DNA of 32,000 bases from Saccharolobus solfataricus (GTDB lineage Archaea; Thermoproteota; Thermoprotei_A; Sulfolobales; Sulfolobaceae), in contig NZ_LT549890.1 in the NCBI RefSeq assembly GCF_900079115.1, positions 1,860,001 through 1,892,000 on the forward strand, given 5' to 3'. Below are positions 1,790 to 30,390 of this stretch, piece by piece. Position numbers and translations under genes: made by a program. The stretch's first letter is position 1, and each line of letters opens with the position of its first letter. The notes beneath the pieces were generated by a model that did no database searches, was not told the DNA's origin, and saw nothing but the letters and a program-made list of their open reading frames with translations.

Positions 1790-2017
1790 ACTATAGGTAA
1801 ATAAACCTTGTGGAGAATTTGCTTACAGAAAGTCTAGCCAAGTTGCATCTGACTTCTCTTCTAAATTCTCAATAATTCCAGCTCGACTGTGAGTAAAGCT
1901 TGTTATACTTCAGCCCTTGATTGAGGAGTAATTTCTAACAATTTTTCTAACTAGAGGAGAATTTCAAACTCAAATACATTCTATGCGTTATTAAGGAGGA
2001 AAAAATGAAAAAGATTT

Positions 2018-2362: not shown

Positions 2363-2665
2363 AAGGTAGTTGACGAAATAGTAAATTTAGACTTTGCTTT
2401 CAAACATGAAAACAGCAGATAAGGACAATGCGTTCACGCTATTAGCATATTAAGATGCTCTTCAAAGATATCACCTTGCATTCGTGTTCTCGTTGAGACA
2501 CTTAGACGTACGTAACCCTACCCTATTAGCTAAGATCTTGATCTTCCTATTGTCCAAAATTTACTGAACAGTCTCTTTCAAACATACATTAACGAATTTG
2601 GAAAAACGTGAAGCTTAGTAAGCATCAAAGAAAGAAAAGGAATACTGGATAAAAAAGGAGATGAC

Positions 2666-3064
2666 TTAAATCATTCTTCTGTCTATAATTGGTAACATGG
2701 GAATGTTGAATTTAGGAGTCGCACTACTTGGGCTCATAGCTTTCACTACTATGTATATCGACGTATAAACGCTAACGTTATTCAACTTAACAGCAATCCA
2801 GCTTTTTAGACAACAATGAGCTTCAGTTTGACCGTGAGATATTAAAGTGAAGTATGTCGAAGGTTCTACTCCTATTAGTTCTAAGTTTTGGCTATATCTA
2901 TATGCAGTAAAGCTTATGTTAATTATTGAGCCTGGTGAATAATACTTCCCTATTGTACAATAATATAAGCAACAAACCTTACCGCAAGGTAATTCGTATT
3001 TTATGTATACGTTAAAGACGTAAGATACTAGATGAGGAGTTAACGTTACGTTCACGTTGTCCAT
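2666..3064 (-). CDS. Hypothetical Cys-rich protein
   Basis: Support is the 132-aa ORF alone. It has several Cys clusters (CGKVCCLYYC, HCC). The frame stays open about 130 nt upstream of the ATG without another ATG. I recognised no motif. Confidence 0.25.
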   Translation of the reverse strand: MDNVNVTLTPHLVSYVFNVYIKYELPCGKVCCLYYCTIGKYYSPGSIINISFTAYRYSQNLELIGVEPSTYFTLISHGQTEAHCCLKSWIAVKLNNVSVYTSIYIVVKAMSPSSATPKFNIPMLPIIDRRMI

Positions 3065-4147
3065 ACAACATTTACAAGCGTAAACTAACTTTATAGGAGT
3101 CGACGAATTCGGAACTAGGAAGCTTATATAAGTACAGTATACTTCTCCAGTTACTAAATACTTGCAAAATCCGGGAGGTAAGAAGCAATAACTTTATCCC
3201 TACTGCTCACCAAATGGAGTCCAGAATAGATGGTGGAAACGATGATGACGTAACCCTCACCCTTCCCGGTAGACCCAAAATCGTATTATGAAAAATAATT
3301 CTGACAGAATAATATCGATTCATGATAGATAACAGGATTTATATGAGTATTAAGAATTCAGTTGAAGAAAGGGTTTAAGGTGAGGGAGATGTGGTATTAC
3401 CACGTGAGTAAGTGAGATGGTAACACCCGGTCTCCCTCACCAAAATAACATTCAACAAATAGGATATAAATTACTTTCCATGCTGAACTTCAAGGGAAAG
3501 AAAGGGGAAGAGGTGGCGAGAACCCTCATCTCAGCGTGTTTATGGAACGATTCGGTGGAAAGCAAGTCGAGGGCGTATGGCGTGTCCCCACAGACCGTGA
3601 CGAATTACGTAGAGAAACAAGGGGTGGAAGTTATTGAGAAACTCTTGGAAAGCGCCAGGAAGATATCCTTGAAGGTACTGAAGGGAGTCAAGGAGATAGA
3701 CCTCTCAATAGACTGGACAACCAAGATCTGGTACGGGAGACCGGTGGGAGGGCTCGGGAGTTCGGAGGAGGGAAACTCTTGGAACTACGCAACTGCGACG
3801 ACAAAGTTTAACGGGAAAGTGCTCCTACTGGCCTTCGTCACTCAAGTCAAGGGGATGACTAAGGAAGAGATCGTGAAGGCCCTCGTGGAGCAAGTCGTCG
3901 CCATGGGGTTCAAGATAAGGTTGATGACTCTCGACGCTGGTTTCTACACGATTGACGTGCTCAACTTCGTTTCGCAGTTCAAGTACGTAATCGGAGTTCC
4001 TGTTGGGGACGTGAAGGTCTACCAGGAGTTTGACGGCGAGTACGAGACTAACAGTAAGAGGCACAGGAGGGACGAGCAGGTCAAGTTCAGGCTCCTCGTG
4101 TACAGCAAGGAGAAGGTTAAGAGAAAGAGGAAGACTCTCGTTTACTT

Positions 4148-11794: not shown

Positions 11795-12388
11795 ATGACT
11801 AGTGGAGCTGGATGGGAAGAGCAGGTATTTTTACCAATAACAAATTCTATTTCTTCTGAGGATAATAATCAAATAAAAATTGGAAGTAGTGTTTCAATAG
11901 AATATAATCAGAATGGACAACATGTCAGTCAAATCGATGATAAGGGGCTTCATAATATCTTAGTACTTACAGGTTATGCAATAGATGAAAGTACCGGCGA
12001 ACTAGTACCTACTTTTGATCCTTGTGATTACGTAAAAGGAATTTTGATAAGTGGTAAAATTTTAAAAGGTAACCATTTTAAGATTATCGGCATTCCTTCA
12101 AACAAATTATATATAATTCGCAAGAAGGACGTGCATGGAAATATAACTTTTAGTCTTCCAATAAAAAACTTTAATACGGGAACCTATCAAGTAGATCTAA
12201 GAGATAAAGTCACATCGTTTGTAAGTTTAGACCGAGATGTCGCTAAGACAATTGTTGACAATGTTTTAGCGAAAATCTATGCGAAAATCTATAATAGTTT
12301 AAATAAAGAGCAAAAGGATAAGCTTTATAGGGATGTAGAAGAAATATTCAACTACTATTCAATAAAAAGTTTAAAATCGAATCCCTAA
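11795..12388 (+). CDS. cmr7: Cmr7-like Sulfolobales-specific Cmr subunit
   Basis: The 197-aa ORF is the first gene of the Cmr operon, directly upstream of cmr4. Its position and size match the Cmr7 subunit described for S. solfataricus/S. islandicus Cmr complexes. It has no RAMP motifs. Confidence 0.55.
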   Translation: MTSGAGWEEQVFLPITNSISSEDNNQIKIGSSVSIEYNQNGQHVSQIDDKGLHNILVLTGYAIDESTGELVPTFDPCDYVKGILISGKILKGNHFKIIGIPSNKLYIIRKKDVHGNITFSLPIKNFNTGTYQVDLRDKVTSFVSLDRDVAKTIVDNVLAKIYAKIYNSLNKEQKDKLYRDVEEIFNYYSIKSLKSNP

Positions 12389-12401
12389 GATATATTGCTA
12401 A

Positions 12402-13328
12402 GTGATTATAATGACTTATTACACTTTTGTTAAACCTTTTTTTATTAAGGCAGTAACTCACTTGCATGTAAGTTCTGGAACATCTGTAGAAGAGGAAGTA
12501 GATTTACCTTTTCAAAGAGATGAGTTAAACTATCCCACAATATTTGCATCTAGTCTTAAGGGTGCAATAAAATCGTTCCTACTAAAGGAATATAGTAATG
12601 CAAGAGAAATAATTTATAAGGTTTTAGGTTCTGACGAAAATCCTGACGAAGCCTCTCTAGGATCTTTTTTGGATGCAGTTCTTTTTGCTATTCCTGCCAG
12701 AAGTATAGGCGTTAGCGGTCTCGATGAAGCATGGGTTTATGTTACCACGTATGAACTTCTCAGGAAGGTAAAATCACTTCTAGAATCGATGAACACTTTA
12801 TCCGCTACACAATTTACCTCTCTTCTGGACGCTATTAATAACATTCTCCAAGAGAGTAAAAATTTGATAATTTCTGATAATGCGGCTAGTGTGATCTTAA
12901 ACGAGGACTTTTACGTAGAATTGAGTAATATTCAAAACGAGTATATTCAGTCTCTTTTAGGAGACATGCTAATTGAGAATTCAACGTATAACCAGAGTAA
13001 CCAAAATTCTCAGTCTCAAGGAAACCACTTAGTAAAGCCTTTAATAGTCCTTAAGGATTCAATAGGTAGGGAAGTGATTAATAGGTCATTAATAAGAGTG
13101 AGAAGGATAAAAATTAAGAGAAGTAGTAAAACCGTGGAAGAAGGTGGTTTATGGTCTGAAGAATATGTTCCAGTGAACTCATTGTTCTTTTCCTCTTTTT
13201 TAGCTAGAGGAAGTAAGGATACCGCATATTTTGCTGACTGTATTTTAAGGAAAACAAGATACTTAATTTTAGGAGGTAAGGAAACTATAGGTAAAGGAAT
13301 TGTTGAATTGAGGTGGTTAAATGACTGA
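12402..13328 (+). CDS. cmr4: Cmr4 (Cas7-family RAMP backbone subunit)
   Basis: AVTHLHVSSGTSVEEEVDLPFQRDELNYPTIFASSLKGAIKSF is the Cmr4 N-terminal RAMP motif. The C-terminal G-rich loop reads LILGGKETIGKGIVEL. Confidence 0.85.
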   Translation: MIIMTYYTFVKPFFIKAVTHLHVSSGTSVEEEVDLPFQRDELNYPTIFASSLKGAIKSFLLKEYSNAREIIYKVLGSDENPDEASLGSFLDAVLFAIPARSIGVSGLDEAWVYVTTYELLRKVKSLLESMNTLSATQFTSLLDAINNILQESKNLIISDNAASVILNEDFYVELSNIQNEYIQSLLGDMLIENSTYNQSNQNSQSQGNHLVKPLIVLKDSIGREVINRSLIRVRRIKIKRSSKTVEEGGLWSEEYVPVNSLFFSSFLARGSKDTAYFADCILRKTRYLILGGKETIGKGIVELRWLND

Positions 13329-13791
13329 AGTACAAGAGGAGAAAGATTATAAACTAGCTATTGAGGCATTTAACCTAGTCTATAATGCTCTAGATAAGAA
13401 GGCTAGAGAAAAATTTAGGAGTAGGGCAAGGGATATGGTGGAGGAGATATATACTTCTGGGTTCATCCCCACGTTGTTTTACATAATATCAAAAGCTGGG
13501 TTAGAGAATAATAATGATAAACTAACCGCGTTATTAAATTCTCCCTCTTCAAAGAGCATTGATCTGGGCAGTAGCGATGAGGCTTCTTATATGGCCTATT
13601 TGTTTGTCATTCTGTACTATCTGTCTGAGAGAAACATTATAAATAAAGAGTTTCTAATTAATAAACTCAAGAATAACCGTTTAGAACTCATAGACAAGTT
13701 GTATGAGTTGTCTCCTATAATTTCCGCCAGGATAAAGAGGTATTTAATGGCAATAAAGAGATTGGCTGAGGCTTTAATAGAGGTGAGGTAA
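13321..13791 (+). CDS. cmr5: Cmr5 (type III-B small subunit)
   Basis: This 156-aa helical protein lies between cmr4 and cmr1. It overlaps the cmr4 stop by 8 nt. Confidence 0.75.
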   Translation: MTEVQEEKDYKLAIEAFNLVYNALDKKAREKFRSRARDMVEEIYTSGFIPTLFYIISKAGLENNNDKLTALLNSPSSKSIDLGSSDEASYMAYLFVILYYLSERNIINKEFLINKLKNNRLELIDKLYELSPIISARIKRYLMAIKRLAEALIEVR

Positions 13792-15195
13792 ATGGAGGAG
13801 TTGTTAATGTCTTTTAAGCTAAAGGCTATTTATCCGTTAACCGGAGGTTATAATAGGCATAGTATAAACGAATTTTATGAAGAGAACGTTAGGCCTACTG
13901 AAATTAAGGGTTTATGGAGGTGGTGGAATAGGGTTTTATTCAATACAGTAAGTTATGTGAAAGAAGGAAAGCTTTACACTTACGACTCTATAGATAGGCT
14001 ATTTGAGGACGTTTTCGGAAGTGAAAACAAGAAGTCTGCAGTAAGGTTAGAGGTGATAACTGATGAGGGAAGCGATAATCATTTTGAACTATCTAATGTT
14101 GAGTTAGATAATGTGATAGATTGCCTAAAGGCAAATAGGGAAGAAAAAGTGAATTTAGACTTTAGAGATAATACGCTAATTATTGAAATAGAAGGCTCAA
14201 CTAAAATTCCCATTTCTTTTAAATCTAATTTAGATATAGATAAAATTAAGGATCTAGTATATAAGAATAAACTTCTTAGCTTTGAGCTCTTAGGTTTTAA
14301 GAGTATTAAAATAGATACAAAGATTTCTGATAAGGAAGTAATTAAGGAAATCTTGCGTGATCTAATTACAAATTATTTAGAATACTTTAATATTAAGCAA
14401 GAAGTTACATTCACTCTTAATATTTATCTAGATAAGAGTCTTAAGCATAAGCAAAACTTTGATGCTAAGCTTAAGTTTGCGCTACATAGTCTATTAGTTT
14501 TTATACTGTTAGGAGGAATTGGAAGGAAAACAAGTAGAGGATTTGGTGGTTTATCAATAGTTAATGCAGAATGTCACGACGGATTATGTGGTGAAATATA
14601 TGGAATAGTAAATAATATGGAGTCAGAAAAAGAAAAAAAGGATCTCGCTACAGTTCTTCCAAATATCATTTTTTCGCAAACTATTGAACAATATTTTAGT
14701 GAGCTAATAAATAATGAAAGCTATAAATTGAGATCATGGAATAATAACTCAGATTTTTTTGTTTATTATTTTATAAAAGATATCAATATATTGAGAATTA
14801 ATAGAATAGACACTAACGTTAACAGAAATGGGATAGAAAATATCTTAAATAGGATATCTAATGAACTATCAGCCTCTGGTAACTGCCTTAAAGACCTCAT
14901 AATGCAAGAAATGAGAAGGAGAGCCTTTGCTTTAGCATTTCTTGGAAATAGAAAATTTAGAAATATTCATGAAATTTATCCTAGAATATTGGAATTTCTA
15001 TACGCTAATTACATCAAAAGAGAATTTGTAAATTTGATAGGAAAAGAAAGAAGGTTATCCAACTTAAGGTTTAAGATTCTTGAGATCAATAATACTTATT
15101 ATATAATTTCATATTTACTTTATTCCAGTTATCTTAAAGATCCAAATTCGAGCATAAAGGATACGTTATATCAGTTTGCTAGATGTGTGATTTAA
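13792..15195 (+). CDS. cmr1: Cmr1 (RAMP)
   Basis: RPTEIKGLWRWWNRVLF is the hallmark Cmr1 motif. The G-rich loop reads LLGGIGRKTSRGFGGLSI. The start abuts the cmr5 stop (TAAATG). Confidence 0.8.
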   Translation: MEELLMSFKLKAIYPLTGGYNRHSINEFYEENVRPTEIKGLWRWWNRVLFNTVSYVKEGKLYTYDSIDRLFEDVFGSENKKSAVRLEVITDEGSDNHFELSNVELDNVIDCLKANREEKVNLDFRDNTLIIEIEGSTKIPISFKSNLDIDKIKDLVYKNKLLSFELLGFKSIKIDTKISDKEVIKEILRDLITNYLEYFNIKQEVTFTLNIYLDKSLKHKQNFDAKLKFALHSLLVFILLGGIGRKTSRGFGGLSIVNAECHDGLCGEIYGIVNNMESEKEKKDLATVLPNIIFSQTIEQYFSELINNESYKLRSWNNNSDFFVYYFIKDINILRINRIDTNVNRNGIENILNRISNELSASGNCLKDLIMQEMRRRAFALAFLGNRKFRNIHEIYPRILEFLYANYIKREFVNLIGKERRLSNLRFKILEINNTYYIISYLLYSSYLKDPNSSIKDTLYQFARCVI

Positions 15196-15196
15196 A

Positions 15197-16051
15197 ATGA
15201 AAATGAGTATAAGTACTCATTTACCAAGAATTTTAGACACATTAAATAGAAATAATATTAATCTATTCTCGGCACTGAGTTTAACCAGCATAGTATACAA
15301 TAACTTTGGAGAATTTCTCTCGAATAAACAGTCATATAGTGCTAATAACCCACTATTAAAGTATCAAATTATAATCCTAAAAGATAAAAATAAAACTAAG
15401 GATGTCGAAGAGAAGAAAAGCCTATTTAAGAGGGAAATAGCTGAACTTGTCTCAAGGAACTTTAAATTAGAGGGCGAAAAAGTAAAGAAATATTTTGATA
15501 ATCTCAAAGAAATACTAAAGTCGTTAAAATACACGATAGTAGACTTTGAAATAACTACTAGGACGAGGGCTTTAATAGGAGTTTCAACTTCTTTAGGTAA
15601 GCTGATTTTTGACTCTGGGATTTCTTTCGATCCATACATGAACTTGCCTTACATACCTGCATCTGAAATTAAAGGTATTGTGAGAAGTTATATTGAGGAT
15701 AAACTAGGCGAGCAAGATGCTGAGGAAATTTTCGGTAATGAGGAAATGGAAGGTAATGTAAACTTTACAGATGCCTATCCTACTAGGCCTGAGAATTTCT
15801 TGTTTGTACCAGACGTAATTACACCTCATTATAATAAGAAGAAGTCTGAGGCTGATGCTGAGCCTAAGCCGGCTATTCATTTAACTATAGCTCCTAAAGT
15901 TTCGTTTAGATTTTTAATTTACTATAAGAGGGAAGATGTAGGAAAACCAATTTGTGATTCCTTACCTCTGGTGATTATGAAAGGTTTAGGTGCTAGATCT
16001 TCTGTTGGATATTCCTTATTTGAATTAAGTAAGATAGAGGTGATTAGATGA
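15197..16051 (+). CDS. cmr6: Cmr6 (RAMP)
   Basis: It carries PYIPASEIKGIVRSYIE and a C-terminal GLGARSSVGYSLFEL G-rich loop. An ATGA overlap links it to cmr2. Confidence 0.8.
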   Translation: MKMSISTHLPRILDTLNRNNINLFSALSLTSIVYNNFGEFLSNKQSYSANNPLLKYQIIILKDKNKTKDVEEKKSLFKREIAELVSRNFKLEGEKVKKYFDNLKEILKSLKYTIVDFEITTRTRALIGVSTSLGKLIFDSGISFDPYMNLPYIPASEIKGIVRSYIEDKLGEQDAEEIFGNEEMEGNVNFTDAYPTRPENFLFVPDVITPHYNKKKSEADAEPKPAIHLTIAPKVSFRFLIYYKREDVGKPICDSLPLVIMKGLGARSSVGYSLFELSKIEVIR

Positions 16052-19000
16052 GTACTGATGATAATTCTAGAGAAGAATTCTTAAACTACAAAATTATGGC
16101 ATTACTTCATGATCCTCCAAATAAGGCGTGGGTGATAACAAGTCGTGCACATAATCTAACAGTGCAGTTAAGAAGCGTAAGAGCTAGGAAAAGTCATGAA
16201 AGAGTGGCTAAGTATATAATCAATCAATTATTCGGCGATATTAATTCTAAAACAGTTGATAATGCAGACAAATTAGCTAGTTCCATAGATAGATATCTAG
16301 GTAGTATCGTATATAAAGAATATAGCTTATTCAGAAATAGATCAATATTCTTAAAGAACATACTTCTATCAAATATTCAAAGGGATGTAGGCAATTTATT
16401 TCCTAAAGATAAATCTAAACTAGATAATTTAATATCAGAATATAAAAAGCTATTAAATGTTACAAATACAACTAATCTTAATATTTTGAAATATCAATTG
16501 TTTTATCTAATTTATGAACTAATATGGATAGATTCTAGATATGAAAATACTCCTGCAGAGACTAGAAACCCTACTCACACAATATTTGACCATTTATATG
16601 CAACTGCTGCAATGATGAACTGGATATTTAGTCTAGAGAAAGAAGCAAAAGGTTACTTACTAGGAATAGATACTATAGGAGTTGCGGACTTCATAAGCAA
16701 GGGAAAGAAGACTAGGGACTTATGGATTTCTAGTTATTTAGTGTCAGCCCTACTCTGGTACGTAATTACCTGGTTTATTGAGGAGTACGGCCCTGACGTT
16801 ATACTTTTCCCCTCGTTAAGGTTTAATCAATTTTATGCGTTTTACCTTTTAGAAAAATTAAGAAAAGAAAAAATATCAGAGGATGTTATAGATGAAATAA
16901 AGGAGTTAATAACTAAGTACATATTTAATGGTGACGATCTGTTTGAGAAATTGGAAATCCCGCCCTATCCGATAATACCTGGTAGGATTACGTTAATCTT
17001 ACCGGGGTTAATAAGGGAAGGTGAAGAATATACGCAAGTTCCAGACGATAATTACTTCATTTCTAAGGTAAAGGAGAGATATAATGAAGGTTGGCGTAAG
17101 CTAATTGAGGGATTAAAGTGTTATTCTGAACTAAAGAGGGAAGATGGTTTCTGGAATTTAGTATGTAGAGTGTTAAAACTGACGGAGGATTTACTTCAAA
17201 CTACTCCTTTAAACATTCGTGTGAAACAAGTGAGTGTAACTAAGGATGAGATATTTAACAATAGCAAATTACGCTCAGATTCGTGGAAGATTTACGACAA
17301 TAAATATCGTCAATTAGTTAGTGAGTTTAAGAAGAGTAAATTAGTGAAAGTTACTCCCGAGTCACGCTTAAAATTATTTGAATTAACTAAATTTGACAAG
17401 TTACCTCAAATTGGTGAGAAATCTAAAAGAGGTTACGAATTCTGTACTTCATGTGGTGTTTTGCCAGCGGTAATTATAATGCCCAAGGAAGACGAATTCG
17501 AGAAAAAATTAATTGAGCTCGGAATTGCGAGAGACGAGAAAGACGTAAGATCTATAAAGAATATGATTTCACCAGGTGAGAGGCTTTGCCCATGGTGTTT
17601 AGTGAAAAGGGCCTTAGGTGCTGAGCCCAGACTTATGAGAATTCTTTTGCTAGGAGATCTTTGCAGCGTTGAGAAGATTGTAAATGAAATCGTTAGTAAA
17701 GATGTTAAGATAGAAATTCCGTCAACTAGTGATATTGCATCGATTAAAACTTTTGAGGAAATGATTGAGAAGAAAAACGAAATCTGTGAAGATCTAAAGG
17801 AAGAGGAAGTTTGCGAGAAGCCTAATGAGAGTATGCTTTCTATGTGGCAGCGGTTTAATAAAAATTACTATACTGGGATAAATCTTACTATAGATCCTGA
17901 GGAGTATTGGTTTAGTGAAAAGAGGAGGAGATATTATTTCTCTCTCTTTAGAAGACATAGAATAACTTTTCCATCACCTTATTACGCTTTAGTTAGGGCT
18001 GATAGCGATTACTTAGGGGATTTGTTAGAAGGTAAGTTAACTCCTTATTTGGCTGGAATTATTGATTCTGGAGATTATGCTAATATTAGTGAGAAGAAAG
18101 AGGAAGTAAATAAATTATTAGAGGAATATTTAGTAAATGCCGGAAGTGGGCCAATAGTAGATTACGTTAAGACAGTATTAGAGTGTATAAGGGGAAATTT
18201 AAATAAGTGTTCATGTGCAGTGAAAATTTATTCTAACGAAGTTGCCGAAGTAATGTTTAGGGCAAATCGTCTGTTACGTAAAAAACTCGAAAAGATAGAC
18301 GTAGAGAGAGAAGTCGAAAACAGTCTTAAATATTTTAGAACTATTTTGAAAGAGGGAAGGATAATAGTTACTCCCGCTTGGCATGTATCGATTTCTTCAG
18401 CACTCAATAGGGGGCTTCTCGTAGAATTAGAATTGATTAATAAACATAAGGGATTTGTAATTTATGCGGGGGGAGATGATTTATTGGCAATGTTGCCAGT
18501 AGATGAAGTTTTAGATTTTGTTAAGGAGAGTAGGAGGGCATTTGCAGGAGTTAGTACTGGAAGATTAGGTAACATGTGCTTAGAGAATGGATTCGCTAGA
18601 ATCAATAATGCTTACTATCCTTCATTACCTATAGTAGGCAGATCGTATTCTGTAATTATAGCACATTATGCCGATCCTCTATTTTTCGTCATAAATGATT
18701 CTTATAATCTTTTAGAGGAGGGGAAGGAAATGATAAGATATAGAGTAATGTATAACGGAGAATATAAGGACGCTAAGAAGGATGTTGCAATATTTAGATA
18801 TCAAGGTTTAACATCAGTAATTCCATTATCGTTAAAGAGACCTATAGTTAACTCTGTGAGTGACTTTAATGAAATAGCCTCTATCATAGACTTAATATTA
18901 GAATTAAAGAAGAGGATCGATGAGGGTCATATTTCCGTGTCCTTACTTTATGATTATGAGGAGTATAAACACTTAATCGTAGCTAGTGATGAGAAGTATT

Positions 19001-19185
19001 TAACTGAATTCTTAGTAAAGGATTGGATAAAAAGAAATTCTCTTAGAAAACACGTTGAGTTTACTATAGACGAGAAGTTATACGGTGTTAGGTTAACTAT
19101 TGAAAATTATCCGATTAAAATTCCTAATGACCTAATTTCTAACATTGTTTATACTCTTAGAATAATTTACGGTGGCGAGAAGTGA
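16048..19185 (+). CDS. cmr2: Cmr2 / Cas10 large subunit
   Basis: The 1,045-aa product has the ALLHDPPNKAW N-terminal Cmr2 motif and NPTHTIFDHLYATAAMM. A Cys cluster reads CTSCG...CPWC. An intact GGDD cyclase motif (VIYAGGDDLLAMLP) is at nt 18469-18480. Confidence 0.9.
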   Translation: MSTDDNSREEFLNYKIMALLHDPPNKAWVITSRAHNLTVQLRSVRARKSHERVAKYIINQLFGDINSKTVDNADKLASSIDRYLGSIVYKEYSLFRNRSIFLKNILLSNIQRDVGNLFPKDKSKLDNLISEYKKLLNVTNTTNLNILKYQLFYLIYELIWIDSRYENTPAETRNPTHTIFDHLYATAAMMNWIFSLEKEAKGYLLGIDTIGVADFISKGKKTRDLWISSYLVSALLWYVITWFIEEYGPDVILFPSLRFNQFYAFYLLEKLRKEKISEDVIDEIKELITKYIFNGDDLFEKLEIPPYPIIPGRITLILPGLIREGEEYTQVPDDNYFISKVKERYNEGWRKLIEGLKCYSELKREDGFWNLVCRVLKLTEDLLQTTPLNIRVKQVSVTKDEIFNNSKLRSDSWKIYDNKYRQLVSEFKKSKLVKVTPESRLKLFELTKFDKLPQIGEKSKRGYEFCTSCGVLPAVIIMPKEDEFEKKLIELGIARDEKDVRSIKNMISPGERLCPWCLVKRALGAEPRLMRILLLGDLCSVEKIVNEIVSKDVKIEIPSTSDIASIKTFEEMIEKKNEICEDLKEEEVCEKPNESMLSMWQRFNKNYYTGINLTIDPEEYWFSEKRRRYYFSLFRRHRITFPSPYYALVRADSDYLGDLLEGKLTPYLAGIIDSGDYANISEKKEEVNKLLEEYLVNAGSGPIVDYVKTVLECIRGNLNKCSCAVKIYSNEVAEVMFRANRLLRKKLEKIDVEREVENSLKYFRTILKEGRIIVTPAWHVSISSALNRGLLVELELINKHKGFVIYAGGDDLLAMLPVDEVLDFVKESRRAFAGVSTGRLGNMCLENGFARINNAYYPSLPIVGRSYSVIIAHYADPLFFVINDSYNLLEEGKEMIRYRVMYNGEYKDAKKDVAIFRYQGLTSVIPLSLKRPIVNSVSDFNEIASIIDLILELKKRIDEGHISVSLLYDYEEYKHLIVASDEKYLTEFLVKDWIKRNSLRKHVEFTIDEKLYGVRLTIENYPIKIPNDLISNIVYTLRIIYGGEK

Positions 19186-20126
19186 TGAAGAGAGTGTTAA
19201 TAAAACCATTAGAACCGTTAATGTTTAGAAGTCAGGGGGAATTTGAGCCCTTAATTACCGGTTCCCACACTGCAGCACAGTCTTTAATAATACCAAGACC
19301 TTCTACAATTGCCGGAATGTTAGGTTATATATTATTTAACAAGAGTTCTGGGACTGGGGACTGGTTATCGGACTTAACGAATTTGCTAGATACTATATAT
19401 GGAACTTTCATAGAGACTAATGGAGAGTATTTATTTCCTCTCAGAATGGGCAATCATTTAGCTTTAGTAGACCAACAACATCTTATAAATCTACCTATTT
19501 TGCTAGAAAAAGAGTACGAACAACGGGAGAAGGGGATTTATGAACTTTTTTATGATAAAAATAAACTATTCCAGATCATAAATCATCAAGATAGGATAGG
19601 AATAAGTATAGATAAAAGTACCAGAACTGTTAAGGAACATTATCTTTACTCAGCTAGATATTTAGCATTTAAGAAGGAGGTTAATTACGTAATATTCATA
19701 GATAATGATGCGATAAGTGATAAGATAAATGGTAAAATAGTGAACTTTGGAGGAGAAAATAGAATAGCTAAGCTTGAAGTTGATGATTATAAAGTGGATA
19801 CAAGTATTGAAGAAGAGTATTACTTAACACTATCTCCTATCTTAATTCCCGATGAAGCTTTAGATGATTTACTTGATAACATAAGCGATTATGTTACAAT
19901 GGGTAAGGTGGATAAGATAAGCTTAGGATTCGATATTGCTAATACTAAAAGAAAAGAGATGCTAACGGCTATTTTAGAGGGTAGTATAGTCAAGAGAAGT
20001 ATTATTGATTTTATTAAAAAGGAGATTAACAACAATTTGCTAGATAGGTTTACTAAATATGAAAAAATAGGATATAACACTCTTATGAATCTTTGCAAGT
20101 TAGCGTTCAGAAAGATATTAAGCTAA
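19182..20126 (+). CDS. cmr3: Cmr3 (Cas5-like)
   Basis: The N-terminus VLIKPLEPLMFRSQGEFEP is typical of Cmr3. The gene overlaps the cmr2 stop and is last in the operon. Confidence 0.8.
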   Translation: MMKRVLIKPLEPLMFRSQGEFEPLITGSHTAAQSLIIPRPSTIAGMLGYILFNKSSGTGDWLSDLTNLLDTIYGTFIETNGEYLFPLRMGNHLALVDQQHLINLPILLEKEYEQREKGIYELFYDKNKLFQIINHQDRIGISIDKSTRTVKEHYLYSARYLAFKKEVNYVIFIDNDAISDKINGKIVNFGGENRIAKLEVDDYKVDTSIEEEYYLTLSPILIPDEALDDLLDNISDYVTMGKVDKISLGFDIANTKRKEMLTAILEGSIVKRSIIDFIKKEINNNLLDRFTKYEKIGYNTLMNLCKLAFRKILS

Positions 20127-20231: not shown

Positions 20232-20720
20232 TTAAGGGTCATTCAAGGTTTTCACAATTTTCTGAAAAACTTCTAATTTATAGACCGTATTTAAGTCTAT
20301 GTTTCTTATACGTTTAGGTAAGTCACTCTTTTCATATCTATCATGCGTTCTCAAATATTCTAACGGATTGTTCTCTTGTGGTGCTAAGAGTATTTCAATA
20401 TGAGGATTGAAAACAATGATACAAACTCTATTCATATCTACACCATTTCTTTTTAACATATCTTTTATCCTATTTTCCAGTATTTGGGAGTCTTCATTAT
20501 CGCTGTCCACAAAGATCATGATTTTGTCGTATCCTTTAAAAATGGAACTTTTTACAATTCTTACTGTCTTTGCAGAGATTATATTTCCTTTTCCGCCCAT
20601 AGAATGACAATCTAATTTGATTTCATTTTCTATCTTTTTGTTCTCTTCAAGTTTTCTGATTAATTCAGCGATTGCACTGCAACCGTATTTATCTTCTGTA
20701 ATTGCTAGAATTATTTTCAT
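20232..20720 (-). CDS. Small Toprim-like (DUF4276/RloB/OLD-C-terminal-like) protein
   Basis: The 162-aa product has an E...DxD...E pattern: ILAITEDKYG, then IMIFVDSDNED, then FNPHIEILL. It lies 10 nt downstream of the ATPase gene and is evidently co-transcribed with it. Confidence 0.55.
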   Translation of the reverse strand: MKIILAITEDKYGCSAIAELIRKLEENKKIENEIKLDCHSMGGKGNIISAKTVRIVKSSIFKGYDKIMIFVDSDNEDSQILENRIKDMLKRNGVDMNRVCIIVFNPHIEILLAPQENNPLEYLRTHDRYEKSDLPKRIRNIDLNTVYKLEVFQKIVKTLNDP

Positions 20721-20730
20721 TATTTTTCAC

Positions 20731-21822
20731 TTAGTATAATAACCATTCACTTAACAAGATACCGTTCTCAGTCAACTTTTCCTTCAATTTCTCTGGCTCT
20801 TGTACTTTATTAACTTTAGTCTCTCCTCTTTCTTTATCAAGAATTATTATTTCTGAAGGATCCATGAAGTCGATAATTAGTGGCGAATGTGTAGTTGCTA
20901 TGAACTGTGAGTCGGAATAGCGCATTATATCAACTAGTCTTTCAATGTACTTAAGGTGGAGGGAGTTCTCTATTTCGTCGATAATGATTGTCGACATTTT
21001 TAACAGATACACAGCTATAATGATTGTCAACATTTTTATAAAACCGTCAGGCACTGATGCGGGCAGTAAAATCAGCTCTTTGTTGTTTTCACTCTTTTCA
21101 ATGAAATGTAGTCTTATATTTCCGTCCTCAGTGAAAACCGGTCTTAGAGAGATGTTGTTTTCAACTAAGAAATCATAAACTTGTTTAGTCTCATTAATTC
21201 TAGACAAGTTATTGCTTATCACCTTAACTAACCCGCGACCGTTTTCGTCTAACGCTTCTGGGAATGTGAAATGGACTGGAGATACTGCTATTTGAGGAAC
21301 TATTCTAAACACTCCTACGTCATTTAGGAAATTCGTCATAAAATTCAAGAGTTCAGGTGGAAGGGTGAAATTGAGATTATATGCTATTATAAAAGGTTGT
21401 GCAAAAAATAAGTTAAATACACTTAAATTATCAGGAATTGTCATCTCTTTATTTTCATATCTTATTACGTTGCCTCTTCTTTCCATACTGTAAGAGTCAA
21501 AATTTATAATTTCCTTTTTTATCTGCAACTTATTTAGCGAAATCTCATAATGGTAATCTTTACCCTTATATTCACCATCGATCTCAAAGGAGATGTCCAA
21601 ATTCTCATCTTGCATAAATACAACGTTCTTGTAATCTCCCCATCGAATGAAAGGATAAGGCGGGTAAGATAGAGGTCTGATAAGTTGCTTTAGAAAACTA
21701 AAAGCGTCGACAAGATTAGTTTTACCAGAACCGTTAGGCCCTACAACGATACTTACTTTCTCAAACTCAAACTCGCTGTCACGGTAACTCTTGAAGTTCT
21801 TTATCTTTAATCTTTTTATCAC
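20731..21822 (-). CDS. ABC/SMC-RecF-like ATPase (AAA_15/AAA_21-type)
   Basis: The start is GTG. The N-terminus reads MIKRLKIKNFKSYRDSEFEFEKVSIVVGPNGSGKTNLVDAF, which includes Walker A. Walker B/D-loop is TIIIDEIENSLH and the H-loop is FIATTHSP. Confidence 0.8.
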   Translation of the reverse strand: MIKRLKIKNFKSYRDSEFEFEKVSIVVGPNGSGKTNLVDAFSFLKQLIRPLSYPPYPFIRWGDYKNVVFMQDENLDISFEIDGEYKGKDYHYEISLNKLQIKKEIINFDSYSMERRGNVIRYENKEMTIPDNLSVFNLFFAQPFIIAYNLNFTLPPELLNFMTNFLNDVGVFRIVPQIAVSPVHFTFPEALDENGRGLVKVISNNLSRINETKQVYDFLVENNISLRPVFTEDGNIRLHFIEKSENNKELILLPASVPDGFIKMLTIIIAVYLLKMSTIIIDEIENSLHLKYIERLVDIMRYSDSQFIATTHSPLIIDFMDPSEIIILDKERGETKVNKVQEPEKLKEKLTENGILLSEWLLY

Positions 21823-23228: not shown

Positions 23229-26200
23229 CTTTCAATTCTATAGTAGATTAGCAACACATTGCTCATATAACTACACCATTCACTATTGCCTCCTTTCAAT
23301 TCTATAGTAGATTAGCACAATGTATGACTATGGATATCAATGGAGCGTCGGCTTAACTTTCAATTCTATAGTAGATTAGCCAAATAATCTAGCATTTTCT
23401 TCATAAAGTTCATTACATACCTTTCAATTCTATAGTAGATTAGCCTTAAAAGTGTTGGAGTTTGTGCAGTTAGTTGAATTTCACTCTTTCAATTCTATAG
23501 TAGATTAGCGTTATTCCTAATTGTTTTCGGAAATTATTTTGAGAATGAACTTTCAATTCTATAGTAGATTAGCGCCGTACTGACTTCTCCCCTGCCAGCG
23601 AGGGTTCTCCTCATCTTTCAATTCTATAGTAGATTAGCTTCCCCACCATTATGTACCACTATTATGCTTCCATTTATTCTTTCAATTCTATAGTAGATTA
23701 GCATGTTCTTTTTCCAGAACTGTAACTATAATTTTGTTGATACTTTCAATTCTATAGTAGATTAGCTATTTTTGCGTATTTACACGATTTATTTATTTCG
23801 CAGAATTCTTTCAATTCTATAGTAGATTAGCAGTGATGCGTACTACGACCGTGAAAATGAGTTGAAAAAACTTTCAATTCTATAGTAGATTAGCCATCAC
23901 GCAGAATAATGGTTCAGGTAACTTTTTAAGGCTTTCAATTCTATAGTAGATTAGCTGATTATATTCAAGGACAATATGTTGAAACGCCGATTTTATCTTT
24001 CAATTCTATAGTAGATTAGCAGATGCTATTGGAGGATTTCACCAGGTTGGGTTATAATGTCAAATACTTTCAATTCTATAGTAGATTAGCTCAGAGTTTT
24101 TTTATTTTTTCTATTTGAAATTAAGCACGCTTTCAATTCTATAGTAGATTAGCTTGGGTGTTTTGTTTAGGTTTGAAAAAGATTATCTTATTTTCTCTTT
24201 CAATTCTATAGTAGATTAGCCCAACGGCTCTTACGCCCTCCTCGGCATGTACAACGGGACGCTTTCAATTCTATAGTAGATTAGCAAGATACCACAACAC
24301 TTGGAGTTAATGCATTATTGAATATGGATACATCTTTCAATTCTATAGTAGATTAGCGGAAAGGCTAATGGAGACAAAAAGAAGTCTAAAAAGCAGCTTT
24401 CAATTCTATAGTAGATTAGCTTCTTCAGCTTCTTCCCAACGCTATATGTGCTATTAGGTGTAACCTTTCAATTCTATAGTAGATTAGCCGGCACAGTACT
24501 ACTATCTGAAAGTGTTGCATCTCCAAATACTTTCAATTCTATAGTAGATTAGCAACACGTCCTTTTTCATTTGTAATATCTGAACCTGGAACTTTCAATT
24601 CTATAGTAGATTAGCCCTAATATCCTCGGGTACTTATAGAACCCTCCTTCTGGTCCTTTCAATTCTATAGTAGATTAGCCTGTTAGTAAGCCCCTTGCTA
24701 CAACTCTATAGAAGTGCGGGTTTTAAACAGCTGTTTGAGAATATAAACATGGGGTAAAAAAGCTACAACTCTATAGAAGTGCGGGCTTTCAATTCTATAG
24801 TAGATTAGCATATTTAAAGTTTTTGCTCAACCAGTTAGGTAACAAGTATTCTCTTTCAATTCTATAGTAGATTAGCAAAGCGGTTGTTTTCCAGTTCCAG
24901 AAACTGGAATTCTTATCTTTCAATTCTATAGTAGATTAGCGGATTTTTAAATGGAGTGAATTGATAAAATGATAAAGCCTTTCAATTCTATAGTAGATTA
25001 GCTTGGTGGGGCGATGAACGGCAACGATATGTTGGACGTCATCTTTCAATTCTATAGTAGATTAGCCTGGAAAACAAATTGAAGAAAGTAAAAAAATTGA
25101 AATTTTAACTTTCAATTCTATAGTAGATTAGCGATAGAGAAAAGTTTATAAAGGAGAGTGAAGATATGTATATCTTTCAATTCTATAGTAGATTAGCTCT
25201 AACACTTTATGATTTCAAGAACTTTGCAAGAAATAACTTTCAATTCTATAGTAGATTAGCTTAGCATGCGAAACAAATGAAGAATTCAGAAGAGAGTTAG
25301 CTTTCAATTCTATAGTAGATTAGCAAAGAATGAGGAAAGAGGCATTGGAAGGCATTGAAGAAGGTACTTTCAATTCTATAGTAGATTAGCTGGAGATTTA
25401 ATTAGATATCATCACTTCGTTCCTTTCTCTCCTTTCAATTCTATAGTAGATTAGCCTGTTACGCCGGTGCTGGAGGGTAAGTTAGTTGGAGAGCTCTTTC
25501 AATTCTATAGTAGATTAGCTTTCCCAGACTTAGTAAAGGACATTTGGAAGGTTCTAATCTTTCAATTCTATAGTAGATTAGCATGAAACAGAAAAAGTTA
25601 ACATTTTAGACCACCAATTAAACTTTCAATTCTATAGTAGATTAGCAAGACCCCGACTTTTTAAGGTTTACAGATCCCGCAGAAAACTTTCAATTCTATA
25701 GTAGATTAGCATGAGGTTCGTCGTGTAGGGATTAATCCCGTGTCTAAAGCTTTCAATTCTATAGTAGATTAGCTAATTATCAATGGCAAACCGCATATAA
25801 TTGGATGAGATTACTTTCAATTCTATAGTAGATTAGCTTTACTACACATGTAATAAGTATGTTGATTATGGAATAGAATCTTTCAATTCTATAGTAGATT
25901 AGCTTGAACACGTGATATAGAACCAGTTGTTCTAATACGTTCTTTCAATTCTATAGTAGATTAGCAACAATAGCAATAGCTTTGCTTATAGTCGGTGTAA
26001 TAATCTTTCAATTCTATAGTAGATTAGCTTGTAAAGACTAGGTAAAACTTTGTTATCATAATAGCAGTACTTTCAATTCTATAGTAGATTAGCAGGAGGG
26101 GCTATACGTACGATCACGAATGTAACATTATCGTGACTTTCAATTCTATAGTAGATTAGCAGTATCTGGCTTTTCGACACAAAACTTCCTTTACCAACCT

Positions 26201-29015
26201 TTCAATTCTATAGTAGATTAGCACGACGATGCTATGTGTTGCACTGTATTTGATCACGGTTATCTTTCAATTCTATAGTAGATTAGCTACGGTTAAAAGT
26301 TGGCAAAAAGCTTAAATTTTTGCATCTTTCAATTCTATAGTAGATTAGCCTTATGAGCCTCTTTGAGATGTGTCTCTGACTTCTGACTTTCAATTCTATA
26401 GTAGATTAGCATAAATAAACTAGGTTTGTATTTATCACCTCCAACAATTCACTTTCAATTCTATAGTAGATTAGCAAACGATAAATTAGCACTATATTAT
26501 AACTATGATTCTACACACTTTCAATTCTATAGTAGATTAGCAACTGTAACTGGTAGCCTTGGTCAGGTGTTACTGACAGTGTCGATGCTTTCAATTCTAT
26601 AGTAGATTAGCCAAAATGATATACATATAGTACCATCACCTAGCGCAAGACCTTTCAATTCTATAGTAGATTAGCGGATATCCAGCAATTGCAACAGGTG
26701 GGTCGGGGATATCATTGCCTTTCAATTCTATAGTAGATTAGCTTTAACTATGACTTTTCAGAATACAACAATTTCGCCAATTCTTTCAATTCTATAGTAG
26801 ATTAGCATGTATACAATAGATCATATGTTATATATAGAGAATGTACCAATCTTTCAATTCTATAGTAGATTAGCTCTTGTACAAACTCTCATACACGTTC
26901 ATTGCAAAACAGTTCATCTTTCAATTCTATAGTAGATTAGCTACACTGTTGCTTTCCTAACGCTCTACATCGCGTTGTCTTTCAATTCTATAGTAGATTA
27001 GCTGCAGGAGGGCGAGGAAGAATGATAAAGATGGAGGAAAACTTTCAATTCTATAGTAGATTAGCTTGTCCCTTCCATGGGCATTTGTCACTTTCACAAA
27101 ACCTACTTTCAATTCTATAGTAGATTAGCATAAAAAAAGAATTATAACTTATTCATCATTCTTTTAATACTTTCAATTCTATAGTAGATTAGCTTATAAT
27201 CCCCGTGACACAGAAAGAATTTTAAATATCATAATCTTTCAATTCTATAGTAGATTAGCTAAACTAACAAGTAAAATTATAACTCCTAACGGAATTGCCT
27301 TTCAATTCTATAGTAGATTAGCTGACGATTATAACACTGAACATGAGTATGCAGTAAGTGAAGTCTTTCAATTCTATAGTAGATTAGCAGAATAATCAGT
27401 GATGAACAGTGTGAGAAACTTGTCCAAGTTTTCTTTCAATTCTATAGTAGATTAGCATGATGTTGAAAATGGACTAAAACTTTTAGATGAAAAACTCTTT
27501 CAATTCTATAGTAGATTAGCTGAACGGAACATCTATTTTTACTCCTAACATCATTCAATCACTTTCAATTCTATAGTAGATTAGCAAATAATGATAAATA
27601 AGGATGAGGTGATAGTACAATGAAATTCTTTCAATTCTATAGTAGATTAGCAGCCCTCCAAAATCGTAAAACCTTGAATATATGAAGTTAAATTTACTTT
27701 CAATTCTATAGTAGATTAGCGTGCTGTAGGCTGTAGGACTGTCGAGGTAGCGTTTGAAGCTTTCAATTCTATAGTAGATTAGCAGAGTTAATAAACATTT
27801 CGAATCCCCACGCTAACGAAAAGCTTTCAATTCTATAGTAGATTAGCACAAATAACGAAACGAATAAATATAATAAATTATGAATACTTTCAATTCTATA
27901 GTAGATTAGCTTGGTGAACCGGTGATAATATTCGTTACGGCGTCCAATACTGTCTTTCAATTCTATAGTAGATTAGCCCTTACCCTTCAGGAAGCTGCAG
28001 AAGATGGTGGAGTACACTTTCAATTCTATAGTAGATTAGCCATCCGTTACGCTGAGCATACTAAGATCTGTCCTATTTGCCATACTTTCAATTCTATAGT
28101 AGATTAGCTATGGGGGTCAGTGACACTTATTCCACCGTTCAGTATTTCTTTCAATTCTATAGTAGATTAGCTGGAATTTTGAATTTTTTGCACCGCTCCA
28201 ATTATTATTTGGCTTTCAATTCTATAGTAGATTAGCTTGTCTGTCGGTGAAGCAGTAGTATTTCTAAGAGGCCGTCCCTTTCAATTCTATAGTAGATTAG
28301 CTCTACTTCTGTCTTCTTAGCCATTCAGCTCACCTTTGCTTTCAATTCTATAGTAGATTAGCGTAAGAATAATTTTACAAAATCTTAGTAATTATATAGT
28401 TTATATCTTTCAATTCTATAGTAGATTAGCCCTCGCTTTAACCGAGGTGTCTCGGTGACGCTTGCTCCGTCTTTCAATTCTATAGTAGATTAGCAGATTG
28501 GTGTATAGTAACAGAAAAGCAGACAACGAAAGGACTTTCAATTCTATAGTAGATTAGCATGTTAGTTATCGGCGTTATAATGGGTATCGGAATCGGTGTA
28601 GCTTTCAATTCTATAGTAGATTAGCCTATTTTTGTCAATAATTTTTTTATTTTTGCATTTTTCGAAATCTTTCAATTCTATAGTAGATTAGCGTAATCTT
28701 ATTTCTGCGGTAAATTGAGATTATAGATGGTACCTTTCAATTCTATAGTAGATTAGCATCATTTATGCACATTTCAACTCCATTTCCAATATGAATCTTT
28801 CAATTCTATAGTAGATTAGCCCACGTTTTTTGTCTTAACTTTAATTGATTTATTAGAATCTTTCAATTCTATAGTAGATTAGCAAGGTCAATCCATTCTG
28901 GGGGCGTTAAACCCGCATCCCTGTCTTTCAATTCTATAGTAGATTAGCGGCAGTGTTAGAATACTAACGGGCGAAGAAGAATGGGTTTATTCTTTCAATT
29001 CTATAGTAGATTAGC
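23229..29015 (-). CRISPR. CRISPR array with 89 identical 24-nt repeats. It has 87 ordinary spacers of 37-48 nt and one aberrant 106-nt interval.
   Basis: I located every repeat by hand; the first is 23229-23252 and the last 28992-29015. All read CTTTCAATTCTATAGTAGATTAGC on the + strand. The reverse complement, GCTAATCTACTATAGAATTGAAAG, ends in ATTGAAAG, the known 8-nt 5' crRNA handle of Sulfolobales. The functional transcript is therefore inferred to be minus-strand. Confidence 0.97.
24697..24785. repeat. Heterologous mini-array: two copies of GCTACAACTCTATAGAAGTGCGGG (24697-24720 and 24762-24785) around a 41-nt spacer-like segment
   Basis: This is an exact 24-nt direct repeat with CRISPR-like spacing, embedded between standard repeats 23 and 24. 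The second copy abuts the next standard repeat with no spacer. Confidence 0.8.
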
Positions 29016-29038
29016 AAGAAGAGAAGGAGGGTATCATA

Positions 29039-29428
29039 GTGAGGGTAGCCAACTTGTTGGCTGTGGGCTTCCTCTATAGCGAGTCTCCAACACTAGTGGA
29101 TAGGTTTGCTAATGCCTTATCCAAAGAGGCTGTGACTAAGGTTCTATATGATGTTCAAAGGATTGTACAGATGGGTATTGATAGGGGTGAGATAGTGAGC
29201 ACGACAACTATGATTCAAGGAAAGGAATATCCCGCTGTTAACGTGTCTTCAAGTGAGGGGAAGTACACGGTAGTGGGTTATCTACCGACTAACCAAGATA
29301 TAGAATATTTTCTTAGGATGATTGAGGAAGATGTGTATTATGCTAGGAAGGCTGGTGCGTTAGCCATGAGTATAGCAAATAGGACTAAGTTAGTTAGTAA
29401 GAGTGAACAAGGTGGTGAAAAGAAATGA
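29039..29428 (+). CDS. csa5: Csa5 (type I-A small subunit)
   Basis: The 129-aa ORF lies directly upstream of, and overlaps, cas7(csa2). The start is GTG, with GGAGGG 8 nt upstream. Its position and size match Csa5 of Sulfolobus type I-A modules. Confidence 0.7.
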
Positions 29429-30390
29429 TAGGCGGTTCAGGTAGATTTTTAGTAAATCTGGAGTCGCTGAATGGTGTTGAGAGTATAGGGAACTTAACCA
29501 AGCACAGAACCGCTCCAGTTGTGTTAAAGACTTCAACCGGTTATTTAGTGAGATATGTTCCAGTGATTTCCGGAGAAGCCTTAGCTCATGCCTATCAAGC
29601 AAGCCTAGTGGATATAGCTAAAAAAGAGGGATTGCCTGTAGGTAATTTATCTTCTCAATACGAGTTCATAAAGTTCTCAACCGATGAGGCGTTAAAGATT
29701 GAAGGGATAAAGGAACCCAAGGATTATAATGATGCGAGGAGGTTCGAGGTAGAGGTGATGCTTAAGGACGTCATTGCTGATGTTGGAGGTTTCATGTACG
29801 CTGGAAGTGCTCCGGTGAGAAGAACATCAAGGATAAAGTTAGGTTATATGATACCGGCTTTAAGGGGAGACGAAATACCTGCACAACTAGAAGCGCAATT
29901 TCACGTGAGATTCTCAAATAAGCCTGTTAAAGGTTCTCAAGCTATCTTCAACGTGGAAGTGTCCTCTGCTCTCTACACGTTTTCGTTTGAACTTGACGAA
30001 GATTTGATAGCAGTTCCATCTACTGTGGGGGAAAAGGTTAAAGGCGAAGAGGAGTTAGAGAGGCAAAAGGCTCGAAGGGTTGACTCTGCAATTAAAGCCC
30101 TTTACTCTTTGCTAGCGGGTAATTTCGGAGGGAAGAGGTCTAGGTTCTTACCATCCATGAAGTTGATGTCTTTAGTAGTGGTGAAGACTGATTTCCCATT
30201 CATACCGGAACCTGGGCATGACGATAGTTACATTAAGACCACTGTTATGAGGTTAGAGAAGGCTAAAAGTGTGTTGAACGGAAATGTAGCTAAGGTCTAT
30301 GTGATTAACAATGAGGGTATAGAAGTGGGTGAAGGAGCTACAGTACTGTCAAGTGTTGAGGATTTGGTAGCTAAATTAAAGGAAAAGTAG
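29425..30390 (+). CDS. cas7: Cas7 / Csa2 (type I-A backbone)
   Basis: [29 protein letters not shown]...[16 protein letters not shown] is the hallmark Csa2 N-terminus. Confidence 0.9.

Follow-up and report, generated by a model that had tools for sequence, protein, structure and literature searches.

A virus-type repeat duplicated inside CRISPR locus F of Saccharolobus solfataricus may record two successive adaptation events

CRISPR locus F of Saccharolobus solfataricus contains one interval that breaks its otherwise regular spacing, and here we describe this interval, the origin of its parts and the way in which it may have formed. The window, meaning the whole stretch of DNA analysed, comprises 32,000 nucleotides (nt), positions 1,860,001 to 1,892,000 of contig NZ_LT549890.1 (assembly GCF_900079115.1). 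Its array (Table 1) is built from a 24-nt repeat that reads CTTTCAATTCTATAGTAGATTAGC on the plus strand and GCTAATCTACTATAGAATTGAAAG in its sense form on the minus strand, present in 89 copies with 0 mismatches. The repeat is of the C-F subfamily type ending in ATTGAAAG, and with spacers of 37–48 nt the array falls among the type I-A arrays of Sulfolobales (spacers of ~36–45 nt). The window contains exact matches to both PCR primers that PMC3468723 gives for locus F of S. solfataricus P2, at 28570–28596 (plus strand, in spacer 83) and 29173–29200 (minus strand, in csa5), and the array is therefore locus F. Published accounts give that locus 88 spacers and no leader, and report that it takes up no spacers and does not vary among strains P1, P2 and P3 (PMC4390879); the array in the window likewise has 88 inter-repeat intervals and lacks a leader.

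The type I-A genes csa5, cas7 and cas5a start 23 nt past the last repeat (Csa5 was recognized by a hidden Markov model match), and an ISH3-family transposase lies at the other end of the array. In metagenome contigs that encode the same Cas7, the canonical order is array, leader, csa1, cas1, cas2, cas4, csa3a, second leader, second array, csa3b and csa5, and in one of these contigs (L004) the leader stands on the CTTTC... side of the array. Window positions 29016–29600 are 99.8% identical to L004 7732–8316, starting 16 nt into the canonical csa5 open reading frame (ORF). At the junction 29015/29016 the leader-proximal border of the last repeat is joined to nucleotide 17 of csa5, whose product is 129 amino acids (aa) long versus 142 aa in the canonical form. 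Compared with the canonical layout, this junction represents an apparent deletion of ~6.4 kb (L004 1348–7731) that would have removed the leader, csa1, cas1, cas2, cas4, csa3a, the second leader and array, and csa3b. Its breakpoint lies exactly at the Cas1 attack site, which hints at an integrase-linked rearrangement. As the canonical layout fixes polarity, the host array reads on the minus strand with its leader side at high coordinates. Protospacer flanks agree: among 13 host spacers with good matches, the protospacer-adjacent motif (PAM) CCN was found for 5/13 and TCN for 3/13 in minus polarity, and CCN for 0/13 in plus polarity. TCN stands beside the best protospacers of three leader-side spacers, 76, 78 and 82 (28172–28212, 28302–28338 and 28559–28601; SIRV4, SSV10 and SSV-RH); for the other S. 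solfataricus subfamily, that of loci A and B, TCN is the reported PAM.

The irregular interval, between host repeats 23 and 24, is 106 nt long and is the sole outlier among the 88 intervals, the other 87 having 37–48 nt (median 40). An earlier interpretation made from the sequence alone (the sequence-only reading) had described it as a foreign two-repeat mini-array embedded in the locus, and our repeat map reproduced its coordinates, sequences and layout exactly. A 17-nt stub is followed by a 24-nt variant, viral repeat (vR), a 41-nt segment (S41) and a second, identical vR flush with host repeat 24, and both ends of the block fall exactly on host repeat borders. S41 is thus flanked by a perfect 24-nt direct duplication with 0 mismatches, the two vR copies starting 65 nt apart. 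Stub and first vR together measure 41 nt, as does S41, both within the host spacer range of 37–48 nt, and the block plus one repeat amounts to 130 nt, or 2 × 65, the length of two ordinary units. The identity of vR to the host repeat is 14/24 in direct and 15/24 in inverted orientation, again as counted before, and 4/8 in the 8-nt tag region. Because only 0.27% of random 24-mers reach an identity of at least 14/24 to the host repeat, this likeness is not due to chance. Positions 10–15 of the host repeat are the hexamer CTATAG, and the same holds for vR in both of its orientations. No further vR copies were found in the window with up to 6 mismatches allowed.

Table 1. Coordinates of the array, the irregular block and related features (window positions unless a contig is named)
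Feature	Position	Strand	Remarks
Host CRISPR array, S. solfataricus locus F	23229–29015	−	89 perfect 24-nt repeats; leader-proximal end at high coordinates
Host repeat 23	24656–24679	−	Leader-distal flank of the block
17-nt stub, CTGTTAGTAAGCCCCTT	24680–24696	not assigned	
vR copy 1, 24 nt, GCTACAACTCTATAGAAGTGCGGG	24697–24720	+	Native polarity
S41, 41-nt segment	24721–24761	−	PAM-proximal end at 24761, as in host polarity
Palindrome AAACAGCTGTTT within S41	24725–24736		
vR copy 2	24762–24785	+	Identical to copy 1; flush with host repeat 24
Host repeat 24	24786–24809	−	Leader-proximal flank of the block
Putative original spacer X (stub plus first vR)	24680–24720	not assigned	Inferred pre-insertion state
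5′-truncated csa5 fused to the last repeat	29016–29428	+	Deletion junction
Examples of viral leader plus mini-array modules	L018 345–950 and 2737–2965; also L038 and L034		
Sites of the promoter-like motif matched by S41	L001 1150, 1501, 1994; L050 10773, 11213; L002 1501		

The block is a real, inherited feature. It is kept in a second, independently assembled genome, CP050869.1 (L003/L013), which is cited in S. solfataricus papers, and the same anatomy has been described for S. solfataricus P2 (PMC4390879); it is therefore not an assembly artefact. The array of CP050869.1 is the same as that of the window except for three internal deletions (spacers 31–38, 40–41 and 68–84), and locus F is thus not invariant everywhere. 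A short Logan contig (SRR10574348) joins spacers 1–7 straight to csa5, being either a large deletion variant or a misassembly. Three simpler accounts of the block were rejected. Two normal spacers separated by a decayed host repeat would place that repeat at block positions 42–65, and the sequence there (TTTTAAACAGCTGTTTGAGAATAT) is unlike the host repeat. Had homologous recombination taken place in the TCTATAG core that the two repeats share, the junctions would be found there, and they lie at the repeat borders. Finally, vR is no chance repeat-like piece of an ordinary spacer, as it is identical to the repeat of 31 independent viral contigs. The stub, presumably the 3′ end of a spacer of a viral mini-array, had no exact match in IMG/VR and did not match the end of the viral leader described below (...GGTATATAAACTTTCA).

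Exact copies of vR were detected in 31 metagenome contigs, in every case as the repeating element of a short array (1–9 repeats), and a degenerate search revealed a variant in one IMG/VR contig (L047). Altogether, these 32 contigs (L016–L047) carry 45 distinct modules of a leader and a mini-array, often several per contig and on both strands. The arrays include repeat variants such as GCTGCAAC… and hold 51 unique spacers of 32–45 nt, and 24/53 adjacent repeat pairs are identical. A strongly conserved leader of ~130 nt precedes them (…AAGCGGGGTTCCC…GGGTAGACCCG…GGGGCACGCACCCCCACGTGAA…GGTATATAAACTTTCA/GCTACAAC…, the slash marking the border between leader and first repeat). This leader is GC-rich and hairpin-prone within AT-rich genomes, and has a TATA-like box, predicted from its sequence, ~8–15 nt before repeat 1. 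The side on which it lies shows that the native polarity of vR corresponds to the plus strand of the window, opposite to the host array.

The carriers of vR are viral. One contig (L016) encodes four ATV_ORF273 paralogues, another (L040) MoxR-type and VWA proteins as in bicaudaviruses, and the proteins of L047 match PHROG families near full-length at 650–1140 bits. At the DNA level, L047 is ~90% identical to SMV1, a monocaudavirus that infects S. solfataricus P2. In place of ~0.5 kb of SMV1 (L051 2673–3186, with a GtrA-family gene), L047 has a 2.8-kb segment (1174–3983) that holds a 144-aa ORF, the leader, a 4-repeat mini-array and a TnpB-like gene; this cassette is absent from the sequenced SMV1–4. 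Several vR modules have IS605 OrfB/TnpB-like genes nearby, so that one may ask whether the cassettes are mobile.

There was no exact vR in IMG/VR or in the species-representative genomes of GTDB, and as the GTDB search did not return the present locus either, that collection lacks or masks it. No cellular array with paired vR 3′ halves was found among about 185,000 species representatives. Leader and array matched no sequenced phage and no PLSDB plasmid, by which a plasmid origin of the cassette and its presence in sequenced SMV or ATV genomes were rejected. Four mini-array contigs had no Rfam match, and tblastn detected no Csa1, Cas1, Cas2, Cas4, Csa3 or Cas6 in 188 kb of viral contigs, which are partial genomes. 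Neither the vR core nor the viral leader occurs among the other 177 unique host spacers, and the searchable literature contains no vR sequence.

For 9 mini-array spacers we found protospacers on sister contigs, and in 7/9 these carried a 5′-CCN in vR polarity; the two lacking it are the weakest matches, and CCN was present only on the opposite side in 0/9. The junction of leader and repeat, TCA/GCTA, is likewise common to host and viral arrays. The shared junction and PAM indicate that the same class of integrase serves both. The vR repeat itself is not near-identical to the host consensus (15/24 to the locus F repeat), and its predicted 8-nt CRISPR RNA (crRNA) tag is AGUGCGGG versus AUUGAAAG in all S. 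solfataricus arrays. We conclude that vR is a genuine CRISPR repeat found only on virus-like contigs, and its cassettes belong, as judged from their sequences, to the virus-borne mini-arrays that Medvedeva et al. (2019) described, with a diverged repeat and a different predicted tag.

S41 also points to these viruses. It matches a repeated promoter-like motif of SMV4, SMV3, SMV1 and ATSV in which the palindrome AACAGCTGTT precedes a TATA-like box just upstream of ORF starts. The best site, in SMV4 (L001:1150–1190), aligns ungapped at 36/41 positions and flush at both ends, with TGG after it (CCA on the opposite strand) and …ATAT before it, and the same 3′ TGG stands beside the match at a second SMV4 site and in L050. 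A 7-nt continuation of the SMV4 match into vR (GGCACAA against GCTACAA) is probably due to chance. As TGG follows these protospacers and the other side has no CCN, S41 has CCA as its PAM when read in host polarity and no PAM when read in vR polarity. Its PAM side thus agrees with the host array and opposes the rule of the viral mini-arrays, meaning that S41 is oriented like a host acquisition. These matches identify S41 as a real virus-derived spacer; its 3′ half had no match in IMG/VR, and its exact source was not found. This promoter/operator-like protospacer motif, TTTT(T/A)AACAGCTGTTTGAGA(A)TAT(A/G)AA, stands ~10–15 nt upstream of ORF start codons in genomes of the SMV type, SMV4 having it at 5 places, and is probably a binding site for a viral regulator.

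The sequence-only reading was therefore right to place the source of the repeat in a virus-borne mini-array and to call the 41-nt segment spacer-like, and its alternative of a plasmid source fell away with the PLSDB search. Two findings that it had named as refuting were not made: vR is present in further arrays, and no single contiguous protospacer accounts for the block. The polarity of vR, which it had left open, is settled as the plus strand by the viral leaders; the host array and S41 read on the minus strand. Its proposed mechanism, capture of or recombination with a whole repeat-spacer-repeat unit instead of normal adaptation, is probably not correct: junctions at repeat borders are a signature of Cas1-Cas2 integration rather than of recombination, and the 41-nt length of stub plus vR, the 130-nt two-unit period and the host-side PAM of S41 favour two adaptation events in place.

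With moderate confidence, we regard such adaptation in situ, the second event occurring at a captured vR, as the best explanation of the block, which would then be the fossil of this pair of events in a type I-A array. In the first event, a host exposed to an SMV-type monocaudavirus with leader and mini-array cassettes would have taken up an ordinary 41-nt spacer, X, whose protospacer spanned the last 17 nt of a viral spacer and one complete 24-nt vR. This capture would have put vR flush against the leader-side host repeat, and the resulting allele, X between two host repeats, would read GATTAGC-CTGTTAGTAAGCCCCTTGCTACAACTCTATAGAAGTGCGGG-CTTTCAAT. At a later integration, possibly in the same infection episode and with X still beside the leader, the host Cas1-Cas2 would have docked one repeat length out of register, onto vR rather than the host repeat. 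As a target vR would be suitable, having the length of the host repeat, CTATAG at positions 10–15 and G/C at both borders. Staggered cuts at both vR borders, joining of S41 and gap repair would have duplicated vR, and we accordingly interpret its second copy as a 24-bp target duplication. On the transcribed strand, the product would run host repeat, reverse-complemented vR, reverse-complemented S41, reverse-complemented vR, reverse-complemented stub, host repeat, equal to two normal units of 65 nt except that the repeat between them is the wrong one. Loss of the leader and the adaptation genes would afterwards have frozen the array.

This two-step model fits five facts: the exact borders, the perfect repeat-long duplication, the two lengths of 41 nt, the viral nature of vR and the host orientation of S41. 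The last would be explained by leader-directed polarity if the slip occurred while X was beside the leader. The first step is plausible because other spacers of locus F target the same virus group (h7, h27, h30, h47, h58 and h80 match vR contigs or SMV1/SMV4) and because the protospacer of one of them overlaps the viral leader module: spacer 47 (26288–26325) matches L039 1641–1674 at 33/34 positions, in the 5′ conserved part of the leader. If X is read as proposed, locus F holds two spacers from viral CRISPR cassettes, spacer 47 and X. Spacer h24 has 14–16-nt matches near viral leaders, too short to interpret.

The plausibility of the second step rests on published properties of these systems, namely internal uptake at locus E, weak specificity of Cas1-Cas2 and a mid-repeat ruler. 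At locus E, where the repeat is the same, new spacers enter at internal repeats, from which the authors concluded that the repeats themselves direct insertion there, and loci C and D commonly gain more than one spacer in a single adaptation episode (PMC3468723). When leader and host factors are absent, Cas1-Cas2 of S. solfataricus acts promiscuously; it prefers G/C at +1 and is influenced by mid-repeat positions 9–12 (PMC5815122), and in another archaeal system mid-repeat motifs and fixed spacing set both cut sites (PMC6698737). The proposed vR target offers G/C at +1 on both strands and a central CTATAG in register, and the inserted DNA has a normal spacer length (41 nt) and a PAM-flanked protospacer (CCA; SMV4 and L050).

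Several observations weigh against the two-step model. The allele with X alone between host repeats was not found in the 31 metagenome matches (all in viral contexts), in CP050869.1 or in Logan contigs, and neither the source of the stub nor the exact source of S41 was found. The C at −2 that S. solfataricus Cas1 prefers is missing at both putative attack sites (TT/G and AG/C, cut at the slash). Moreover, positions 1–4 of vR (GCTA) resemble the host repeat in the plus polarity of vR itself, and with this 5′ end purely repeat-guided integration predicts the opposite orientation of S41. The observed orientation needs a polarity set by the context (leader or neighbouring host repeat) or a slip in register. 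That vR abuts the host repeat would be a coincidence with a probability of about 1 in 18 unless docking slipped from the adjacent host repeat, in which case it would be a precondition. The PAM of S41 is derived from homologous protospacers at ~88% identity, and its CCA stems from a conserved ATGG start-codon context. Lastly, as locus F is reported to be inactive, the event must have preceded leader loss or have been leader-independent.

Among the alternatives, a one-step capture, the idea of the sequence-only reading, is unlikely. The host adaptation machinery would have inserted 106 bp of a viral mini-array, made up of spacer tail, repeat, spacer and repeat, as one oversized spacer. This model would account for the exact borders, the perfect duplication and the viral vR: units of two identical vR around a spacer exist on viruses (the identical pairs counted above; L018, L019, L023 and L035), and any integrated spacer ends at host repeat borders. 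An anti-SMV spacer would also fit the inter-viral targeting by virus-borne arrays (PMC6858448). However, 106 nt is more than twice the length of the longest of the other 87 spacers (48 nt), and spacers acquired experimentally in S. solfataricus measure 36–43 bp (PMC3468723). Such a capture leaves unexplained why stub and vR add up to one spacer length and why the block has a two-unit periodicity. It also requires S41 to be inverted relative to the viral PAM rule, for which there were 0/9 reversed cases, and reversed insertions make up <2% in Sulfolobus (PMC4390879). A viral array with S41 or the stub was not found.

We consider it improbable that X was acquired first and that recombination or gene conversion with a viral mini-array then copied S41 and a vR into it. 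Homology would be available from stub and vR together at one end and from vR at the other end, and short-repeat recombination has been blamed for CRISPR rearrangements and deletions in Sulfolobus (PMC4390879); the three internal deletions in CP050869.1 show that this array recombines. Yet such templated insertion requires a viral array in which S41 already stood in the 'wrong' orientation beside the same stub-bearing spacer, and a double crossover within 24–41 bp, and no viral array of this kind was found. The weakest alternative, that the block has nothing to do with CRISPR (the 24-mers being direct repeats of a mobile element or parts of one long protospacer, or the block an assembly error), is very improbable, as only the central 41 nt match viral genomes outside arrays, vR is phased with 32–45-nt spacers behind a conserved leader in 45 distinct modules, and the block is present in two independent assemblies and mentioned in the literature; chance, a mobile-element direct repeat and an assembly artefact are thereby excluded. 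What probability remains after these readings belongs to something we have not considered.

The irregularity itself has been noted before. Garrett et al. (2015; Life 5:783, section 4.5, PMC4390879), citing Lillestol et al. (2006), mention "half a spacer ... two atypical repeats" in S. solfataricus P2, the same anatomy as that of the block, and give no origin and no mechanism. Their review assigns it to locus D and places an 899-bp pNOB8-like insert in locus F, whereas here the locus F primers flank the leader-side end of the array that has the atypical repeats and lacks the insert. The labels D and F were therefore probably swapped in the review. What appears to be new is the viral origin of vR, the evidence on polarity, the reading as a nested integration and the family of vR cassettes on SMV-type viruses.

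Virus-borne mini-CRISPR arrays are known from SPV1, SPV2 and ATV (Medvedeva et al., 2019, Nat Commun 10:5204, PMC6858448). Like those, the vR arrays are found on viruses of Sulfolobales, show no cas genes in the 188 kb of partial genomes searched and have a leader and few spacers that are aimed at related viruses; the leaders described there bear promoters, and that of vR has the predicted TATA-like box. In contrast, the published arrays use four host consensus repeats, whereas vR is only 15/24 identical to the host repeat and differs in its tag; the vR leader, apart from the junction, is unrelated to host leaders and occurs in several copies per contig on both strands, and the longest vR arrays have 9 repeats. 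No earlier description is known of a piece of a virus-borne mini-array lodged in a host array.

Non-canonical integration that generates new repeat pairs was reportedly observed by Nivala and colleagues in 2018. PMC6698737 cites integration of this kind as its reference 51, and ectopic acquisition within arrays has been described for Streptococcus thermophilus (PMC7999890, PMC5338259). As in such off-target or ectopic Cas1-Cas2 integration, the block has a normal-length spacer at a distance from the leader-proximal repeat, and a target as long as a repeat is duplicated. It differs in that the target would be a viral CRISPR repeat stored in a spacer, neither a host repeat nor a random pseudo-repeat, and in that the case is natural, fixed and deduced from sequence alone. 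Internal insertion at locus E (Erdmann and Garrett, 2012, PMC3468723) has in common with it the repeat family, single spacers at internal repeats and the retention of polarity and a CCN PAM. At locus E, however, the host repeat itself is duplicated, whereas the block duplicates a heterologous 24-mer beside a host repeat.

As to present-day function, Cas6 would be expected to cut the sense transcript at host repeats 24 and 23, which, unless the reverse-complemented vR is also cut, would give one double-length crRNA whose guide begins with the viral repeat. The reverse-complemented vR keeps CUAUAGA before the expected cut, and its tag differs (GUUGUAGC). If Cas6 spares this foreign repeat, S41 would have no proper 5′ tag and may be largely inert. 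Before the second step, X would have matched its source cassette fully and every vR-bearing cassette over its first 24 nt.

If the two-step model is true, the block is a natural, fixed record of a type I-A Cas1-Cas2 using a heterologous repeat of the right length and central motif, which bears on repeat recognition (a mid-repeat anchor and ruler) and on the origin of new repeat families or arrays. The host would have gained immunity against the virus's own CRISPR cassette through spacers X and h47, and a repeat family so far seen only on SMV-type viruses would extend the mini-array concept beyond copies of host repeats. The vR tag then raises the question of which Cas6 and which effector use such a crRNA. 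As the locus sits in a much-studied archaeal CRISPR model, in which SMV1 is an established trigger of adaptation, the model is directly testable. A wider reading, which we offer tentatively and hold to be possible rather than probable, joins these points. CRISPR arrays could nest, a viral repeat stored by the host being a live integrase substrate that seeds an 'array within an array'. SMV-type viruses would carry previously undescribed, multi-copy and possibly mobile cassettes of a GC-rich leader and a mini-array, loaded by the CCN-dependent adaptation of the host. Their orthogonal tag would point to a cognate effector or a decoy, and host and virus would sample each other's CRISPR modules.

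Upstream of the array, the window contains a type III-B cassette within 11795–20126, with cmr1, cmr6, a 1045-aa cas10/cmr2 and cmr3. At 20232–21822, on the strand opposite to the cmr cassette, two genes encode an ATPase of SMC/AAA type, whose N-terminal part gave weak MADS3/PtuA-like matches, and its 162-aa partner, a pair that may form a separate defence module.

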